Assembly: GCA_033178465.1 (NCBI GenBank)
Contig: GCA_033178465.1_4726.5
Length of the DNA stretch: 32,613 nucleotides
Source: a phage
Direction: 5' to 3' (one strand)
Part shown: positions 26,990 to 32,613 of the stretch, one piece after another
Position numbering within the stretch: the stretch's first letter is position 1
Layout: each line of letters begins with the position of its first letter
Translations under genes and position numbers: made by a program
Notes under the pieces: model-generated
Seen by the model: the letters and a program-made list of their open reading frames with translations, nothing else
The model's database searches: none
Told to the model about the DNA's origin: nothing

Positions 26990-27029
26990 TGAACTATTAG
27001 CAACCAATCCGATATAAGAGGATGTCAAG

Positions 27030-27347
27030 ATGAGTATGTTTAAAATGGCTGTATTTGCTATTCGTAATAATCGCGATATCTTAGGTCATTTGGAAGCTGA
27101 CGCTGAAGGAACACTGATTCGTTTCATGCGTCGTGTTAAAGAAGCCTTTGATAATCGCGAGTATCTCGTGGAAGTTGTTGAGGACCTTCCACCGAACTCG
27201 ATGCGTTTTGTCGCTATCGATGGATCTGCAACCGACATCCGTTTCATCACCGTTAACGGAACAATGATGATGTTTTCGGGCGATGATACTGTTACAGGGC
27301 TGTTTCCAATCGTAACGGTTCTGGGTCATTTCTTACGTGCAAACTAA
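27030..27347 (+). CDS. hypothetical protein
   Basis: Track ORF; AAGAGGA upstream of ATG. Confidence 0.55.
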   Translation: MSMFKMAVFAIRNNRDILGHLEADAEGTLIRFMRRVKEAFDNREYLVEVVEDLPPNSMRFVAIDGSATDIRFITVNGTMMMFSGDDTVTGLFPIVTVLGHFLRAN

Positions 27348-27351
27348 TCAG

Positions 27352-27370
27352 GTCCCCCTAAATGGGGGGC
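27352..27370 (+). terminator. GC stem-loop (CCCCC-TAAAT-GGGGG core) followed by TTTATACCG and T-rich sequence
   Basis: 5-7 bp G/C stem 5 nt after the stop at 27347, followed by CTTTATACCGATTTTATTT. Confidence 0.45.
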
Positions 27371-27405
27371 TTTATACCGATTTTATTTCAATAAGGATCT
27401 TTATC

Positions 27406-27828
27406 ATGAAACTGTTCAAAAATATCGTATTCGCTATCGTCACCACTCTGGCTTTTGTTAGCACGCAAGCACAGGCTAACTGGATGGCTCGTGGGAATAA
27501 CTGCTACGCCTACAGCGAAGACGGTCGTTATCAGATTGGTATCTCCGATCGCTCGCTTGTTGTCATGGGTCAATTTCAATGCAGTGCGCACTATCCGATG
27601 TCTGATACCGTAGGAATCAATGGACGTGTATACCAAGCATTGAATATCTGCAGTCCTGACATGCGTTTGATTCCGGTTATTAGCCTTGCGAATACAGATC
27701 AAGCTGCTAATGCAATCGCCAGCCTTAAAGAAGCACGTCGTGCGCGTATTCGTGCGTTTAACGAAACCATCATCGTAAATACCGATGATATTCAGGCATG
27801 CGCTAACAGTGTAGCGGCCGTACGTTAA
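27406..27828 (+). CDS. secreted protein with signal peptide
   Basis: Track ORF 27337 trimmed to the ATG at 27406 after AAGGAT; N-terminus MKLFKNIVFAIVTTLAFVSTQAQA-N is a typical Sec signal. Confidence 0.6.
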   Translation: MKLFKNIVFAIVTTLAFVSTQAQANWMARGNNCYAYSEDGRYQIGISDRSLVVMGQFQCSAHYPMSDTVGINGRVYQALNICSPDMRLIPVISLANTDQAANAIASLKEARRARIRAFNETIIVNTDDIQACANSVAAVR

Positions 27829-27866
27829 TACTAAATTGGTTTATTTAAGTTATTAAGGAAACGATC

Positions 27867-28217
27867 ATGAAAACGTTAACTAAATTGTTTGTTGCTGTTG
27901 CTATTCTGTTCAGTAGTGTTGTCGGTTCAGCGCAGGCTGGGTTGCTGGATAGCCCAGAAGTTTACGATAAAGCAAAAGCAATCTACATGGCCATGGAGAG
28001 CATGACGCCAGCAGACCTTGAAGAATGCGGTGTTGATTTCGGTATCCCGAAAGAACTCCCTGGAGTTAAGAACCCTACCAACCCCAGCGTGAAATTGAAA
28101 GTGGCAGACTTCGAAGTTTTCAACCCCTCTTTCAAGACCTACGCGCGGGTTCGTATACTTGTTGATCCAGCAACCGGTGTTGTTCAGGGCGGTGAATATC
28201 TCTATCTGGGTAAATAA
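27867..28217 (+). CDS. secreted protein with signal peptide
   Basis: AAGGA 8 nt upstream; N-terminus MKTLTKLFVAVAILFSSVVGSAQA-G. Confidence 0.6.
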   Translation: MKTLTKLFVAVAILFSSVVGSAQAGLLDSPEVYDKAKAIYMAMESMTPADLEECGVDFGIPKELPGVKNPTNPSVKLKVADFEVFNPSFKTYARVRILVDPATGVVQGGEYLYLGK

Positions 28218-28235
28218 TTGAGTAAGGACAATACG

Positions 28236-28445
28236 ATGATTCCAGCTAACCCTCTTTTAAGTCTCAATCCTTTCCATAGCAATCCTGGTGTCGATCCGAT
28301 ACAGCCTGCTTTTTTATCACAGTTCCAGGCTGATTATGATGGCGATGTGGTAACTCGAACCCGTATCCGTCTGTTGAATCACCGCAAGAAAGGCCCAGGT
28401 AAAGGCAAAGTAAAAATCATTCAACGTTTAATCTCTTATGTATAA
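28236..28445 (+). CDS. small basic protein, KKGPxKGK family
   Basis: Track ORF 28218 (TTG) trimmed to the ATG at 28236 after TAAGGA; contains HRKKGPGKGKVKII, same patch as the 10532-11098 trio. Confidence 0.45.
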   Translation: MIPANPLLSLNPFHSNPGVDPIQPAFLSQFQADYDGDVVTRTRIRLLNHRKKGPGKGKVKIIQRLISYV

Positions 28446-28464
28446 ACCAACATTGTTCGATAAG

Positions 28465-28486
28465 TGCCGCCTACATATGGGCGGCA
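28465..28486 (+). terminator. stem-loop (TGCCGCC / GGCGGCA, 8-nt loop)
   Basis: 7-bp GC-rich stem 20 nt after the stop at 28445. Confidence 0.35.
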
Positions 28487-28618
28487 TTGCTCTGGTCTTT
28501 ATGTTGTACAACAGTTGTCAAGGAGGTATGTGGGTACGTGCGTTATTAATCGCACTCGCGTTAGCGGTGTTTCTAAAATTTGAATCATCGCTTTATCAGA
28601 AAAAGTAAGAAGGAGTTC

Positions 28619-28813
28619 ATGATGGGACATATGCTACTACGGGGATTAACGGGGATGGTTTTAGCATGGATGGTGATTGGGTTTTGTGGGATGATGTTCT
28701 TCATGGTAGATGAACCGGCTGCCCGAATTAACGTAGGGTTATGGTTCGTCTTCCTGATGATAGCGGTATTCGTTATCGTTACCTTGTTGAGGAATGTAGG
28801 AAAACACAAATAA
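28619..28813 (+). CDS. small membrane protein, two predicted TM helices (holin-like size class)
   Basis: Track ORF 28580 trimmed to the ATG after AAGGAG; hydrophobic stretches GLTGMVLAWMVIGFCGMMFFMV and LWFVFLMIAVFVIVTLL. Confidence 0.5.
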   Translation: MMGHMLLRGLTGMVLAWMVIGFCGMMFFMVDEPAARINVGLWFVFLMIAVFVIVTLLRNVGKHK

Positions 28814-28829
28814 ACGATCGGGAAAAGCC

Positions 28830-29201
28830 ATGAGTTTAAAGACATACGCAAAAATCTATTTCATTTTCACTTTTATAATGATTGGGATTTCTGCAACGAA
28901 TATCGATTTTGAAACAACGACGGAACGCGTTTATTACGTTATCCGAACCATCGTTTGTGTTATAGGGCAGCTTCCCCTTTTGTATATTTGTACGTGGTCG
29001 ACGCGTAACATCAGACGGTTTGTCGTGTATGGGTTCGCGTACGTTCTTTTCATGCTTGTTATGTGGCAGGTCGATGCTCGACTGAGTGATATCGCAAATA
29101 TCATCGCAACGGCGATCCTCAGTGCAACAAGCTGGTGTTTATTTTTACCGATGTGTCGTCGTGTCGAGGATGAAGGTTATGGGTATCACGGAGAATCTTA
29201 A
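28830..29201 (+). CDS. membrane protein, 3-4 predicted TM helices
   Basis: Track ORF; hydrophobic segments IYFIFTFIMIGI, IRTIVCVIGQLPLLYI, FVVYGFAYVLFMLVMW, IIATAILSATSWCLFL. Confidence 0.55.
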   Translation: MSLKTYAKIYFIFTFIMIGISATNIDFETTTERVYYVIRTIVCVIGQLPLLYICTWSTRNIRRFVVYGFAYVLFMLVMWQVDARLSDIANIIATAILSATSWCLFLPMCRRVEDEGYGYHGES

Positions 29202-29490
29202 GTTAACTAATCGCATCCTTGTCGATAGAGAAGTTGTTTTACGCGAGATACGAAGCGTGATGGCGATCTTTAATCTGGATCATCGATCCGCCATTATGTC
29301 TATTCTCTTGAATAAAACAACCTTTAATATCCGGGAGATACGTCGTATTCACAACGGTGTGGAGCGACGGCATAAATTAAGCGACGAACTCGTACATTGC
29401 GAGTTTATACCACATCAAGTCTATCGACGTATTTATCGCGATCCGTATGTTCGGGATAAATACAACCTATGGCTTGACGGTAGAGGTTAA
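29170..29490 (+). CDS. hypothetical protein
   Basis: Track ORF 29086..29490 trimmed to the first ATG near the end of the upstream gene; start uncertain (also ATG at 29179). Confidence 0.35.
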   Translation: MKVMGITENLKLTNRILVDREVVLREIRSVMAIFNLDHRSAIMSILLNKTTFNIREIRRIHNGVERRHKLSDELVHCEFIPHQVYRRIYRDPYVRDKYNLWLDGRG

Positions 29491-29507
29491 CATCTTTGAG
29501 AAACTAT

Positions 29508-29675
29508 ATGAATTCAAACGATGTACACCTTTACCGCGTTGGATACGGGAAATGGGTTCTGTTATCCAACGTTATGTTTATTGCCAAACCAGAGGAGACC
29601 GTATTTTCAGTACCGTTTATTTCTGTCGTGGATGTCGGGCAAACATCTGACGCTAACCTGCTGCCCGCTGAATAG
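29508..29675 (+). CDS. hypothetical small protein (55 aa); not in ORF track
   Basis: Hand translation MNSNDVHLYRVGYGKWVLLSNVMFIAKPEETVFSVPFISVVDVGQTSDANLLPAE; alternative to overlapping track ORF 29447..29650 in another frame. Confidence 0.3.
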   Translation: MNSNDVHLYRVGYGKWVLLSNVMFIAKPEETVFSVPFISVVDVGQTSDANLLPAE

Positions 29676-29742
29676 AACAACCCGATGACGGGATGCGTTA
29701 TCAAGACGCCAGTGGACAGCACCTTATCGTGAGGTTATTAAG

Positions 29743-30240
29743 ATGCAAGGTATTTTACACACGTTGATTTTAGGACTTGCTATGTTGCTTATCGCACCGT
29801 TCAGTCAAGCATCAGTGAACGCGGGGCCTAGAATCGATTGCCGGAAAGAGATCGTCGCATGTGCGGTGTATATGGAAGCCAGAGGCGAATCTGTAAAAGG
29901 GCAATACTCCGTGGCGTTTTTAATACATAATCGATCTATGGACTACCGATTCCCTACGAACGTCAGAGACGTCGTACTGCAAAGAGGTCAATTCCCCTGG
30001 ACAAAACAAAGGCGTATTGTCATACGCGATCACGCTGCTTTTGAGCGAGCAAGAGCAATAGCACGAGAGGTCGCAACATTACGTTATACTGACATTGCGG
30101 CTTACCATAAAGCCGACCCAACACGAGGAGCTGTATTCTTTAACGCGAAACATCTTCGCCCTAAACATTTCAGAAAACATGCTACCAATATCACCGTGGT
30201 AGATAGCCACATTTTCTTTGGTAAACGACGACACACGTAA
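29743..30240 (+). CDS. secreted SleB-like cell-wall hydrolase (Hydrolase_2 family), candidate endolysin
   Basis: GAGG upstream; signal peptide MQGILHTLILGLAMLLIAPFSQASVNA; signature CAVYMEARGES...GQYSVAFLIHNR...FPTNV...VVLQRGQFPW. Confidence 0.7.
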   Translation: MQGILHTLILGLAMLLIAPFSQASVNAGPRIDCRKEIVACAVYMEARGESVKGQYSVAFLIHNRSMDYRFPTNVRDVVLQRGQFPWTKQRRIVIRDHAAFERARAIAREVATLRYTDIAAYHKADPTRGAVFFNAKHLRPKHFRKHATNITVVDSHIFFGKRRHT

Positions 30241-30253
30241 AACAAATCCGTAT

Positions 30254-30280
30254 GCCCTTCCTGCGTAAGGCAGGAAGGGC
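30254..30280 (+). terminator. GC stem-loop (GCCCTTCCTGC-GTAAG-GCAGGAAGGGC) followed by TTATGCTG; terminator-like or regulatory
   Basis: 11-bp perfect stem 14 nt after the stop at 30240; same downstream box as at 819. Confidence 0.45.
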
Positions 30281-30333
30281 TTATGCTGTTAAACTGACTA
30301 AATGTAATCATCCTAATAAAGAAGGAAATCATC

Positions 30334-30591
30334 ATGAAAACGATCAAAGCAACTAAATCCGTTAAAACAAATAAAACTAACGTTCAGCCACTGCATCATA
30401 TCACGGTTTATCGTAACAAAGATAACGCAATCACCAAGTTCCGCGTCCGCGTAAAAGCGGCTGAATCCGTATTAGAGAAATTGGTTGATATGACGGTTTC
30501 TGTTGATGCTTACGATTCGTACCAGAAAGCAATGCTGGCGGCGATTCAAATCCGCGATAAAGCGCTGAACAACCCAATCAACGCATTTTAA
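30334..30591 (+). CDS. hypothetical protein
   Basis: Track ORF; AAGGA 9 nt upstream of ATG. Confidence 0.55.
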   Translation: MKTIKATKSVKTNKTNVQPLHHITVYRNKDNAITKFRVRVKAAESVLEKLVDMTVSVDAYDSYQKAMLAAIQIRDKALNNPINAF

Positions 30592-30612
30592 TTACTTAGC
30601 AACTTAGCAAAC

Positions 30613-30649
30613 GGTTCTTCTCTTCCTGAGGCTGTGGAGGGGAAGAACC
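30613..30649 (+). promoter_or_regulatory. long imperfect stem-loop immediately upstream of the RBS of 30664..31164, preceded by tandem CTTAGCAA repeat
   Basis: GGTTCTTCTCTTCC ... GGAGGGGAAGAACC gives about 14 bp with three G-U pairs; AAAGGAG RBS starts 2 nt after the 3' arm. Confidence 0.35.
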
Positions 30650-30663
30650 AGAAAGGAGTAATT

Positions 30664-31164
30664 ATGTTTTCTTTTGTTGTCACTGAAGAACAACTGGTGC
30701 GTTTTAAAGAGCGCGCACGGGCTGCTATCGAAGAAGGTGAAATCGAACCACGTATCTTACCAGCCTGCCGGGCGTTACTGGACGCGCCTGGTATCGCACC
30801 GATGTGGTCATGCGAAGGACACGATAACGTAACCCGTAAAGTGGTTGTTGATGGGAAAACAACCACAAAAGTTGTTCGTAAGCACCCGCACGTGATCGTT
30901 GCGGTAACAACCGAAGGGCTGTCTTACATAAACGCTATTGGTGAATGTTTATTACAACAGTCGGCTGATTACGTCTGGACCATCAATGCGAGTCGATTAT
31001 ACGATCCTACCCAGGAAGAAGAGTCGATGGACACACGTTATTGGGCGTGGGGTATCCATTCCGTTAATTACATAGATAGTGGCGATGAGACAATGGAGGA
31101 ACGTGGAGAACGGCTAAACGACGCTATTCTTGAAGCGGTAGAAAAGGTGAGAAGTCAGAATTAA
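30664..31164 (+). CDS. hypothetical protein
   Basis: Track ORF 30634 trimmed to the ATG after AAAGGAG. Confidence 0.55.
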   Translation: MFSFVVTEEQLVRFKERARAAIEEGEIEPRILPACRALLDAPGIAPMWSCEGHDNVTRKVVVDGKTTTKVVRKHPHVIVAVTTEGLSYINAIGECLLQQSADYVWTINASRLYDPTQEEESMDTRYWAWGIHSVNYIDSGDETMEERGERLNDAILEAVEKVRSQN

Positions 31165-31247
31165 TTCTTACCGAAAATCGGTAACCTGTGAACTGATAAA
31201 ACTGTAATCGTGTCACGTAAAAGACAATCTTTATTTGAGGAATAGAA

Positions 31248-31988
31248 ATGCAAGAAGCACGTTATCAAGGAAGCATCATGCTCTCCTGTGGTTTTGTTAT
31301 TGAACATCCAATTCACGGTAAATTACTCATCAAAGAAGACATCCGTAAAGCATCGCAATCGAAAAACTTCTCCCCGCTTCTAGCGGCTAAAGCTTTATTA
31401 GCATCGTTTGATGACATCGATATTGTCAGTTACCAAACAACGTTATATAACGTTGATGGTTACGGATGGATTTATGGGTGGGTTTGTGTTCAACATGATC
31501 GAATCGATGTCGTTGTAGGGAACGAAAAAGCGTTTTGGTTCAGCGAATCAAAAACTGATTTTGCGAATCACACGCATGTGGTTAAACTACAAAGCGACGA
31601 TCTATTACAAGACGTACGTCGTTTCTGGTCGGGCTATCAGGATAACATTTTGATTCCGGTGCCTGACGAGCTTTCGAAGGTGTATGACGAACTGGTAAGC
31701 GAGAGCGGTGACGTTTGGCAAACCTGCGAAGATCCGTATCGATTCTTCACACGTAAGCAGAAAGACCGTCTGATGGTACGTGGTTGGATTGAGAATCCTG
31801 AAGGTGGCATTTATCACTATGTCGATGCGGAAGCGGTGGTTAGCGACGAACGGTATAAGTTTGATATTCGGGATGAACAGTTAATATGGACAGCACAGCG
31901 TTCAGCAGAGCGAGATGGTGTGATCACCATGTTCTATGATCCCGAAATCAAATTGACCCTGTTTGCAGAAGGAGATATTGACGAATGA
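31248..31988 (+). CDS. hypothetical protein
   Basis: Track ORF; GAGGA upstream of ATG. Confidence 0.55.
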   Translation: MQEARYQGSIMLSCGFVIEHPIHGKLLIKEDIRKASQSKNFSPLLAAKALLASFDDIDIVSYQTTLYNVDGYGWIYGWVCVQHDRIDVVVGNEKAFWFSESKTDFANHTHVVKLQSDDLLQDVRRFWSGYQDNILIPVPDELSKVYDELVSESGDVWQTCEDPYRFFTRKQKDRLMVRGWIENPEGGIYHYVDAEAVVSDERYKFDIRDEQLIWTAQRSAERDGVITMFYDPEIKLTLFAEGDIDE

Positions 31989-32560
31989 ATTGGATTAAGG
32001 TAGTGTTGTTTATTATACTTGTTGCCGTATCTGTCGGACTATTCTTTTACACACGTCGGAAAGAACAGAAACGTAAACCGAGCAGACCGTTGGTTACCGG
32101 TGTTGTAACACCCGCAAAACAGTCTGAATTACCTAAATCTCTTTATATGACGGAAGTGACTTTAGACGCATCAAAAGGCAATGAGCTCGTGCTCGAAATG
32201 TTAATGCAGAAACACTATAAAGATGCTGTATTGACTGCCGAGTATTGGGTTGATCCTAGCAACCCAGGCAAACGCTGGCGTGCCTGGTATCCTTTACATG
32301 TACCGTGTACGAATACCTGGATTGAGTGGCCTGCATTGGTTAGCTATCGTTCAACCGATAAAGCGAACAAAGCAGCGTTCTTCTTGGATACCAATCGTTT
32401 CAAATGGTATCCCGATAAGGTAACAAATGAGCCGGTATGGATGCCTAAGAAGGGCGGTACGTGCTTTACTGTCGGACAAGTCATGTTAACAGATTTAGAC
32501 GACCAGAACAACTTCTTTGTCATTGAAGAAGAAAAGCTTAACGATCTGATTCCTTACTAA
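31985..32560 (+). CDS. membrane-anchored protein with N-terminal TM helix
   Basis: ATGA overlap with upstream gene; N-terminus MNWIKVVLFIILVAVSVGLFFY followed by RRKEQKRK. Confidence 0.55.
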   Translation: MNWIKVVLFIILVAVSVGLFFYTRRKEQKRKPSRPLVTGVVTPAKQSELPKSLYMTEVTLDASKGNELVLEMLMQKHYKDAVLTAEYWVDPSNPGKRWRAWYPLHVPCTNTWIEWPALVSYRSTDKANKAAFFLDTNRFKWYPDKVTNEPVWMPKKGGTCFTVGQVMLTDLDDQNNFFVIEEEKLNDLIPY

Positions 32561-32580
32561 TCGTTCGATATAACGGTACG

Positions 32581-32611
32581 CGGTGTTCATCCCTAAAAAG
32601 GATGAACACCG
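32581..32611 (+). terminator. stem-loop (CGGTGTTCATCC-CTAAAAA-GGATGAACACCG), probable terminator
   Basis: 12-bp perfect stem 21 nt after the stop at 32560; the window ends before any U-tract can be seen. Confidence 0.45.
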
Positions 32612-32613
32612 TT

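Follow-up and report, generated by a model that had tools for sequence, protein, structure and literature searches.

A SleB-like hydrolase with a predicted export signal and a constrained non-coding leader at the end of a putative envelope operon in a Goslar-like jumbo phage

The locus and its relatives

We analysed a stretch of phage DNA of 32,613 nucleotides (nt) (assembly GCA_033178465.1, contig GCA_033178465.1_4726.5; hereafter the window), in which a gene for a SleB-like cell-wall hydrolase lies downstream of several small membrane-protein genes. An earlier reading, made from the letters alone and called here the sequence-only reading, had taken this arrangement for a candidate lysis cassette. 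From position 27000 to 31200 the window matches Escherichia phage vB_EcoM_Goslar, a nucleus-forming jumbo phage of 237 kb, end to end with 93% DNA identity, the + strand of the window corresponding to the reverse strand of Goslar. All four open reading frames (ORFs) named in that reading are present as described and have gp101, gp100, gp099 and gp098 of Goslar as their orthologues (Table 1). In the following, the suffix h (gp101h etc.) marks the window homologue of the Goslar gene of that number, and the product of the gp098 orthologue is called the hydrolase. In the Goslar records gp098 is a "putative cell wall hydrolase" (GenBank QBO63891) or an "endolysin" (RefSeq YP_009820783). The locus closes a co-directional array of about 33 kb (gp094-gp159) that consists of small accessory and nucleotide-metabolism genes.

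IMG/VR, Logan and metagenomes supply up to 12 additional Goslar-like contigs in which the four ORFs have been retained. In gp101h, gp099h and the hydrolase gene, the window differs from Goslar mainly at third codon positions (6 synonymous and 4 non-synonymous codon changes in the last of these); in gp100h the substitutions are distributed evenly among the three positions. Compared with Goslar the genes are under purifying selection, and they are real genes rather than chance ORFs. A further gene, encoding a membrane protein of 56 amino acids (aa), is missing from the annotation of both Goslar records. It differs from its Goslar counterpart by 5 synonymous and 0 non-synonymous changes, the first 26 residues of its product are invariant in 8 genomes, and it is found in every Goslar-like contig covering the site (84-100% identical); judged by these sequences, it is clearly under purifying selection.

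Scans of the small proteins of the cluster against Pfam, PHROG and NCBIfam gave a match for the hydrolase only, i.e. no holin family was matched by the 56-aa, 64-aa and 123-aa proteins and no family at all by the gp104 and gp103 homologues. The 103-aa gp099h is a soluble, basic and all-helical protein whose homologues, in a profile search, are confined to Goslar-like phages. Its best AlphaFold model reaches a predicted local distance difference test (pLDDT) of 85.6, the other four 58-68; the model has no fold match in the PDB (best E = 3.7), and no PDB sequence match was found. A CaiF/winged helix-turn-helix assignment was dropped, as the hit was weak (E = 0.04) and scored far below the cut-off, and no meaningful PDB fold match accompanied it.

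Table 1. Positions of the genes, the leader and the flanking hairpins in the window
Feature	Position	Strand	Size	Remarks
GC-rich hairpin	27350-27372	+	9-bp stem	3' of the stop codon of the gp105 homologue; RNAfold on the intergenic spacer 27348-27405
gp104 homologue	27406-27828	+	140 aa	predicted cleavable signal peptide MKLFKNIVFAIVTTLAFVSTQAQA before N; predicted periplasmic
gp103 homologue	27867-28217	+	116 aa	predicted cleavable signal peptide ending in SVVGSAQA before G; predicted periplasmic
gp102 homologue	28236-28445	+	69 aa	soluble, C-terminus basic
56-aa membrane-protein gene	28438-28608	+	56 aa	hydrophobic segment ~35-48, shorter one ~15-24
gp101 orthologue (gp101h)	28619-28813	+	64 aa	
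gp100 orthologue (gp100h)	28830-29201	+	123 aa	
gp099 orthologue (gp099h)	29179-29490	+	103 aa	
Non-coding leader	29491-29742	+	252 nt	invariant core 29491-29677, hypervariable loop ~29671-29709, conserved segment by the ribosome-binding site
gp098 orthologue (hydrolase)	29743-30240	+	165 aa	
GC-rich hairpin	30254-30280	+	11-bp stem	14 nt past the hydrolase stop codon; RNAfold

The hydrolase, its export signal and its leader

The hydrolase matches the Pfam profile Hydrolase_2 (PF07486) over its whole length (positions 1-100 of 100) with 60 bits, the cut-off being 27, and E = 3.7e-16; its best PHROG is 938, "endolysin". By sequence it matches just two PDB entries, the catalytic domains of SleB in 4F55 and 4FET, with YMEARGE of the phage protein aligned to YGESRGE. 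The same two entries are the sole significant PDB matches of its AlphaFold model (52 homologues, pLDDT 88) in Foldseek, with a probability of 1.00 and a target-normalised template-modelling score of 0.72-0.74. The catalytic motif reads Y43-x-E45-A-R-G-E49; 52 diverse homologues show no variation at E45, R47, G48, E49, N63, R64, F84, W86, P140 and H156, and E45 is presumably the published catalytic Glu of SleB. Family, fold and motif thus agree with the sequence-only reading, which had seen here a Hydrolase_2 enzyme of the SleB type with a hydrophobic N-terminus. The SleB equivalog of NCBIfam (TIGR02869) scores 41.5 bits against a cut-off of 236.5, and only its C-terminal catalytic part aligns. 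From these alignments the protein is a homologue of the SleB catalytic domain and no SleB orthologue; by analogy with spore SleB, it is most likely a murein hydrolase acting as a lytic transglycosylase.

Such an enzyme had been called uncommon for the lysis of a Gram-negative host, which does not hold. With tblastn, 1018 phage records yielded homologues of the hydrolase, the majority from phages of Escherichia, Salmonella and Klebsiella, and a profile search returned at least 2973 proteins at E <= 1e-8; moreover, Hydrolase_2 has been listed among the dominant lysin domains of phages of Gram-negative hosts (Vazquez et al., PMC8223927). The signal peptide, too, is the norm of the family, a strongly hydrophobic N-terminus being present in 115 of 120 members.

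In the hydrolase of the window the predicted signal peptide spans residues 1-23 (29743-29811; MQGILHTLILGLAMLLIAPFSQA, followed by SVNAG). Its hydrophobic core ILHTLILGLAMLLIAPF of 17 residues is made up of L/I/V/F/M/W to 65% and of G/A/S/T to 24%, and the c-region, with Pro19 at -5 and Ser/Ala at -3/-1 (S21-Q-A23), fits the -3,-1 rule. The homologues of CR9, POP15, A73, Arash and DevonBitter carry canonical AxA signal peptides. Four of these five (all except DevonBitter) also share a Cys pair just before the catalytic motif, represented in the window by Cys33 and Cys40, and such a pair would be consistent with a periplasmic disulfide. Judged by its composition, the N-terminus of the hydrolase looks like a cleavable Sec signal, and both export and cleavage would follow from it.

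The sequence-only reading had left open whether this N-terminus is a Sec signal or the anchor of a signal-arrest-release (SAR) endolysin, i.e. an uncleaved, weakly hydrophobic segment that would keep the enzyme inactive until a pinholin depolarises the membrane. Three observations could be read in the latter sense: the n-region contains no Lys or Arg and the 17-residue core is rather long, some distant family members have Gly/Ala/Ser-rich, SAR-like N-termini (e.g. P0085 with 42% G/A/S/T), and a two-transmembrane (TM), pinholin-like gene lies nearby. However, the core with its 24% G/A/S/T against 65% L/I/V/F/M/W, which is followed by Pro and S-Q-A, does not have the composition of such an anchor, and the close homologues have classical cleavable signals. 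We therefore rejected the SAR reading on core composition and consider it very improbable; what stands of the earlier proposal is the Sec-type export signal. In the family at large, P0078, P0085, P0093 and similar members have Gly/Ala/Ser-rich N-termini that resemble SAR anchors (e.g. MKMSTIIGGVASSAVIVAMAVVYMTADEA), and SleB-like phage enzymes may, by their sequences, use both export modes.

The 252 nt in front of the hydrolase gene are the best-conserved stretch of the locus. Among 8 genomes the segment 29491-29677 has a nucleotide diversity of 0.015 (9 segregating sites out of 187), whereas the four-fold degenerate sites nearby reach 0.16 in the hydrolase gene, 0.29 in gp097h and 0.45 in gp099h; the constraint on the leader is thus about ten-fold stronger than at synonymous sites. 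The block is retained even in a relative in which gp101 is only 56% identical and gp099 has strongly diverged. This spacer shows no codon periodicity, and its diversity peaks at codon position 2. Hence, where the sequence-only reading had counted one or two small unknown ORFs before the hydrolase gene, gp099h is real and the second, located in the spacer, lacks a coding signature. A protein gene in the leader (ORF59, ORF55, ORF67; TTG 29496-29675) was accordingly dismissed, with 3 synonymous and 7 non-synonymous changes in the frame of ORF59 and other frames no better. Nor is the leader a known RNA family (no Rfam match at E <= 1) or a repeated or mobile element, Goslar having one copy of it and other phages none. 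The spacers before the SleB-like genes of other phages measure 23-65 nt.

RNAalifold, applied to 11 sequences, predicts a 15-bp hairpin at 29536-29572, in which 6 pairs vary and all stay paired (one U-A changing to C-G), and a long-range helix of 21 bp (29645-29670/29710-29735) that encloses the hypervariable loop. In the predicted structure 98% of the cells are paired, compared with 33-44% when the partners are slid. The long-range helix would pair three of the four bases of the Shine-Dalgarno sequence GAGG (29731-29734). On this model the leader is a candidate translational control element, the predicted fold of which would occlude the ribosome-binding site. One could go further and suppose that an RNA switch, without any holin, sets the time at which the exported hydrolase acts: the helix would bury the Shine-Dalgarno sequence until it is opened, either by a physical cue or by a late phage factor, for which gp099h and other RNA-binding proteins are candidates. 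We regard this extended version as speculative and, on the whole, unlikely; if true, it would amount to a translation-gated, holin-independent clock for lysis or wall remodelling in a nucleus-forming phage. The leader is the only unexpected feature of the locus and the one that could lead somewhere new.

At the same site, a one-base insertion in one lineage (L012 5950-6498, IMG/VR UViG_3300011560; compared with window 29692-29743) brings an upstream ATG into frame, which would give its hydrolase a possible basic N-terminal extension of 17 residues (MRYQDASGQHLIVRLIK); neither the window nor Goslar has this ATG in frame.

Lysis cassette or accessory enzyme

The two small membrane proteins that the sequence-only reading had proposed as holin or pinholin candidates, with 2 and with 3-4 TM segments, show two and four hydrophobic segments, respectively. 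In gp101h the TM segments (residues ~9-30 and 39-57) are connected by a loop with a net charge of -1 and followed by the tail RNVGKHK with a charge of +3; hydropathy and charge distribution (positive-inside rule) predict an N-in/C-in topology. A small size, two TM segments, this topology and a charged C-terminal tail are the features of class II holins and pinholins, and from its topology gp101h is a candidate for a protein of this kind. A check for a dual-start motif found MMGHM at the N-terminus in most genomes, MIWLK in one lineage and MGHL in L023. The protein is conserved in all Goslar-like contigs, and HMMER, run exhaustively on 1.84 billion representatives, retrieved just three relatives, all restricted to the clade. 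In tblastn searches against 50,697 phage records, gp101h and gp100h were found in Goslar only. The four-segment protein gp100h has no relatives outside Goslar-like phages; it is absent from four contigs (L012, L016, L022 and L027) and falls to 46% identity in two others (L021 and L023). Going by this distribution, gp100h is a variable, dispensable membrane protein and no obligatory partner of the hydrolase. The candidacy proposed for the two proteins therefore stands in part: gp101h has the class II shape, but neither protein matches a holin family, and gp100h has been lost in a lineage. The hydrolase, gp101h and the 56-aa protein are always found together in Goslar-like contigs; all these relatives are close, so the linkage is uninformative.

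Besides gp098, Goslar has two further genes for peptidoglycan hydrolases, gp024 and that of a tail protein of 2252 aa that includes a lysozyme domain. The 211-aa product of gp024 contains no hydrophobic segment and matches GH108 and PG_binding_3 at E ~1e-19; by its domains it has the canonical architecture of the soluble endolysins of phages of Gram-negative hosts. Its best homologues, 43-53% identical, are those of other jumbo phages (PaBG, phiEaH2, Stratton, SPN3US and pVa-21). The sequence-only reading had conceded that a different endolysin and holin elsewhere in the genome might account for lysis and leave the genes of the cluster dispensable; with gp024 a canonical endolysin is indeed present, and this objection to the cassette holds in part. 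In a whole-genome scan, no ORF with a lipobox was found in the Goslar interval orthologous to the cluster, so that a spanin is not in evidence there. The sole clear lipoprotein of Goslar is gp088, elsewhere in the genome (Goslar 97923-98426; L004 47923-48426; signal MKKLCAIILGMLMVLSLGGC); its gene adjoins a tail-fibre assembly gene, and the protein is a candidate, by sequence, for an o-spanin or a superinfection-exclusion lipoprotein. In gp094h of the window (31985-32560), a TM segment at the N-terminus precedes a strongly basic stretch (RRKEQKRKPSRP), and the protein is predicted to be a membrane-anchored cytoplasmic one in N-out/C-in topology; as this is the wrong orientation, it was discarded as an i-spanin. 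We found no description of a holin or spanin of Goslar and no experimental work on its lysis genes in the literature.

The hydrolase gene is the last of eight (27406-30240), six of which have products predicted to be membrane-bound or exported; in a scan of the whole Goslar genome this is the densest cluster of membrane and exported genes. Two of these products are the gp104 and gp103 homologues, the former 81-99% identical among Goslar-like contigs. RNAfold places strong hairpins on either side of the eight genes and none between the genes inside. The stem arms of the upstream hairpin are conserved in Goslar and in an IMG/VR relative, the loop of the latter having a 3-base insertion, and the stem of the downstream hairpin is retained by compensatory changes in the IMG/VR relative (CCCTTCC/GGAAGGG to CCCTCCC/GGGGAGGG). 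The former would mark the upstream limit of a transcription unit, possibly as a terminator, and the latter its end, which would make 27406-30240 an envelope-directed operon with the hydrolase gene in last place. Scans for sigma-70 promoters and intrinsic terminators were uninformative. Farther downstream, two more long GC-rich hairpins lie at 30613-30649 (14-bp stem, between the gp097 and gp096 homologues) and 32580-32612 (13-bp stem, after the gp094 homologue); they have no classical U-tracts and are possibly terminators or RNA 3'-end structures for the phage polymerase. The same region contains a mosaic hot spot, i.e. the gp096 and gp095 homologues are ~70-80% identical to Goslar in DNA, compared with 95-99% for the flanks, and the gp096 homologue (30664-31164), like gp100h, is present in some Goslar-like genomes and absent from others (L012, L016, L022 and L024).

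How much of the proposed lysis cassette remains? A true cassette would have the SleB-like enzyme as principal endolysin and gp101h, alone or joined by the 56-aa protein and gp100h, as holin or pinholin, and its trigger would be a collapse of the membrane potential that activates enzyme already present in the periplasm. The wall hydrolase, the export signal and a gp101h of class II-like size, topology and basic C-terminus, conserved wherever the hydrolase is, all fit this proposal. No other obvious holin was seen in Goslar, gp024 could be an entry enzyme, given its place among virion genes, and in Vequintavirinae a 2-TM gene overlapping the SleB-like gene has been proposed to encode a class II holin (Buttimer et al., PMC7344957). 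However, the membrane proteins match no holin family, the relatives of gp101 are limited to the Goslar-like clade, gp100h is dispensable and the cluster contains no spanin. In addition, the endolysin common to the related jumbo phages is the canonical soluble enzyme encoded elsewhere, and a cleaved, soluble periplasmic enzyme is not obviously held back by the membrane potential. We therefore consider a true cassette possible but unlikely.

A second alternative would separate the enzyme from lysis: an exported transglycosylase might loosen the sacculus before lysis and so allow the cell to enlarge or bulge around the phage nucleus and the virion bouquets, or it may have some other task in the periplasm, shared with the secreted proteins encoded beside it. 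Indeed, Goslar-infected cells show a "characteristic cell envelope bulging" (bioRxiv 10.1101/2023.09.20.558163). The gene ends the accessory and nucleotide-metabolism array instead of lying among late genes, its homologues in other large phages are found among replication and small early genes, and it shares the predicted operon with two secreted proteins. Yet bulging is not known from T5-like phages and Vequintavirinae, although they possess the same enzyme, and the homologue CB7_83 of a Certrevirus, a SleB-like protein with a signal peptide, was toxic on expression in E. coli (data not shown by its authors; Buttimer et al., PMC7344957). The remodelling hypothesis is also purely inferential, and we judge it distinctly improbable.

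The reading that we prefer, with a probability of about 0.5, is that the hydrolase is an accessory, laterally acquired, exported and holin-independent muralytic enzyme encoded at the 3' end of an envelope operon. All 1016 tblastn matches outside Goslar are below 60% identity, the best being Salmonella phage Arash (46%), followed by Vequintavirinae and T5-like phages; all 60 of these matches that were listed belong to smaller phages (95-181 kb). The neighbours of the gene in Arash, Vequintavirinae and T5-like phages code for helicase, exonuclease, phosphatase and small early proteins. Because gp024 is shared with jumbo phages and the listed relatives of the SleB-like gene reside in smaller phages, lateral acquisition as an accessory enzyme appears plausible.

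On this preferred reading, the hydrolase would be synthesised in the cytoplasm and leave it through the host Sec machinery by means of its cleavable signal peptide; released into the periplasm, probably with a stabilising disulfide between Cys33 and Cys40, it would cut the peptidoglycan there without requiring a holin for access. It would act beside the lineage-conserved cytoplasmic gp024 and contribute to, or speed, the degradation of the sacculus when the infection ends, although any role in lysis is one that we infer. Since export would be independent of a holin, its timing would have to be set at the level of expression, and the constrained leader is a candidate timing device. The product of gp101h, perhaps together with the 56-aa protein, may act as a pinholin-like depolarizer; gp100h would not be required.

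Several observations weigh against this interpretation. As gp024 sits among virion genes, it might be a virion-associated or entry enzyme, which would leave gp098 as the main endolysin. The missing Lys/Arg in the n-region is atypical of a signal peptide, and the signal-peptide and SAR calls are rule-based. Variation in the leader is scarce and its covariation weak, with changes on both sides of a pair in 3 cells, a number reached by 6 of 500 shuffles. Finally, the hairpins flanking the operon have no clear U-tract, which makes its boundaries putative.

Reports credit Vequintavirinae and T5-like phages with an endolysin separate from the SleB-like enzyme. As in these two groups, that enzyme is probably a second muralytic gene in Goslar-like phages too, beside a canonical endolysin, and the automatic label "endolysin" should not be taken to mean "the lysis gene". 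Host lysis by nucleus-forming jumbo phages is largely uncharacterised, and knock-down tools for Goslar exist; the short list of candidates for Goslar lysis comprises gp101h, the 56-aa protein, gp024 and gp098.

Comparison with known enzymes

The closest known system is Goslar itself, in which gp098 and gp099-gp104 have the gene order and the leader of the window. The two differ by a few substitutions, and their hydrolases are 97.6% identical in protein sequence.

With SleB of Bacillus spores (4F55, 4FET), a lytic transglycosylase, the hydrolase has the catalytic fold and the Glu motif (ESRGE in SleB) in common, but the identity is only 23-24% and the phage enzyme lacks the N-terminal peptidoglycan-binding domain of SleB. 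SleB requires the muramic-delta-lactam of cortex peptidoglycan. As E. coli has no muramic-delta-lactam, the substrate rules of the phage hydrolase must differ from those of SleB.

Access to the wall by way of the Sec pathway is known from the secreted endolysin Lys44 of Oenococcus phage fOg44 and from the SAR endolysins Lyz of P1 and R of phage 21, the latter working with the pinholin S21. The hydrolase of the window would resemble these enzymes in Sec-dependent, holin-independent access to the wall and in having a small 2-TM protein as a possible trigger; it differs from them in its catalytic fold, and its signal looks cleavable and non-SAR.

SleB-like phage enzymes with signal peptides are already published for another phage group, just as gp098 was already annotated. 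The hydrolases of the Vequintavirinae (CB7_83 of a Pectobacterium phage, gp095 of Cronobacter phage CR9 and SleB of PVP-SE1) are, like the one described here, single-domain Hydrolase_2 proteins with a signal peptide, a Cys pair and the motif YxEARGE, at 31-36% identity to it. In both groups the hydrolase gene lies away from a classical lysis cassette, a second peptidoglycan hydrolase is present and a small 2-TM protein is encoded nearby. The latter is, in the first of these phages, the 65-aa CB7_82, whose gene overlaps that of CB7_83 and which was proposed as a class II holin (Buttimer et al., PMC7344957). We found overlapping 2-TM genes in POP15 and A73 as well, the products of these Vequintavirinae genes measuring 62-70 aa. 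Whereas the 2-TM gene of the Vequintavirinae overlaps the 3' end of the hydrolase gene, that of the window lies 930 nt upstream, with no sequence similarity detected between them. The Vequintavirinae hydrolase genes are also without a long constrained leader, which belongs to the Goslar-like phages only.

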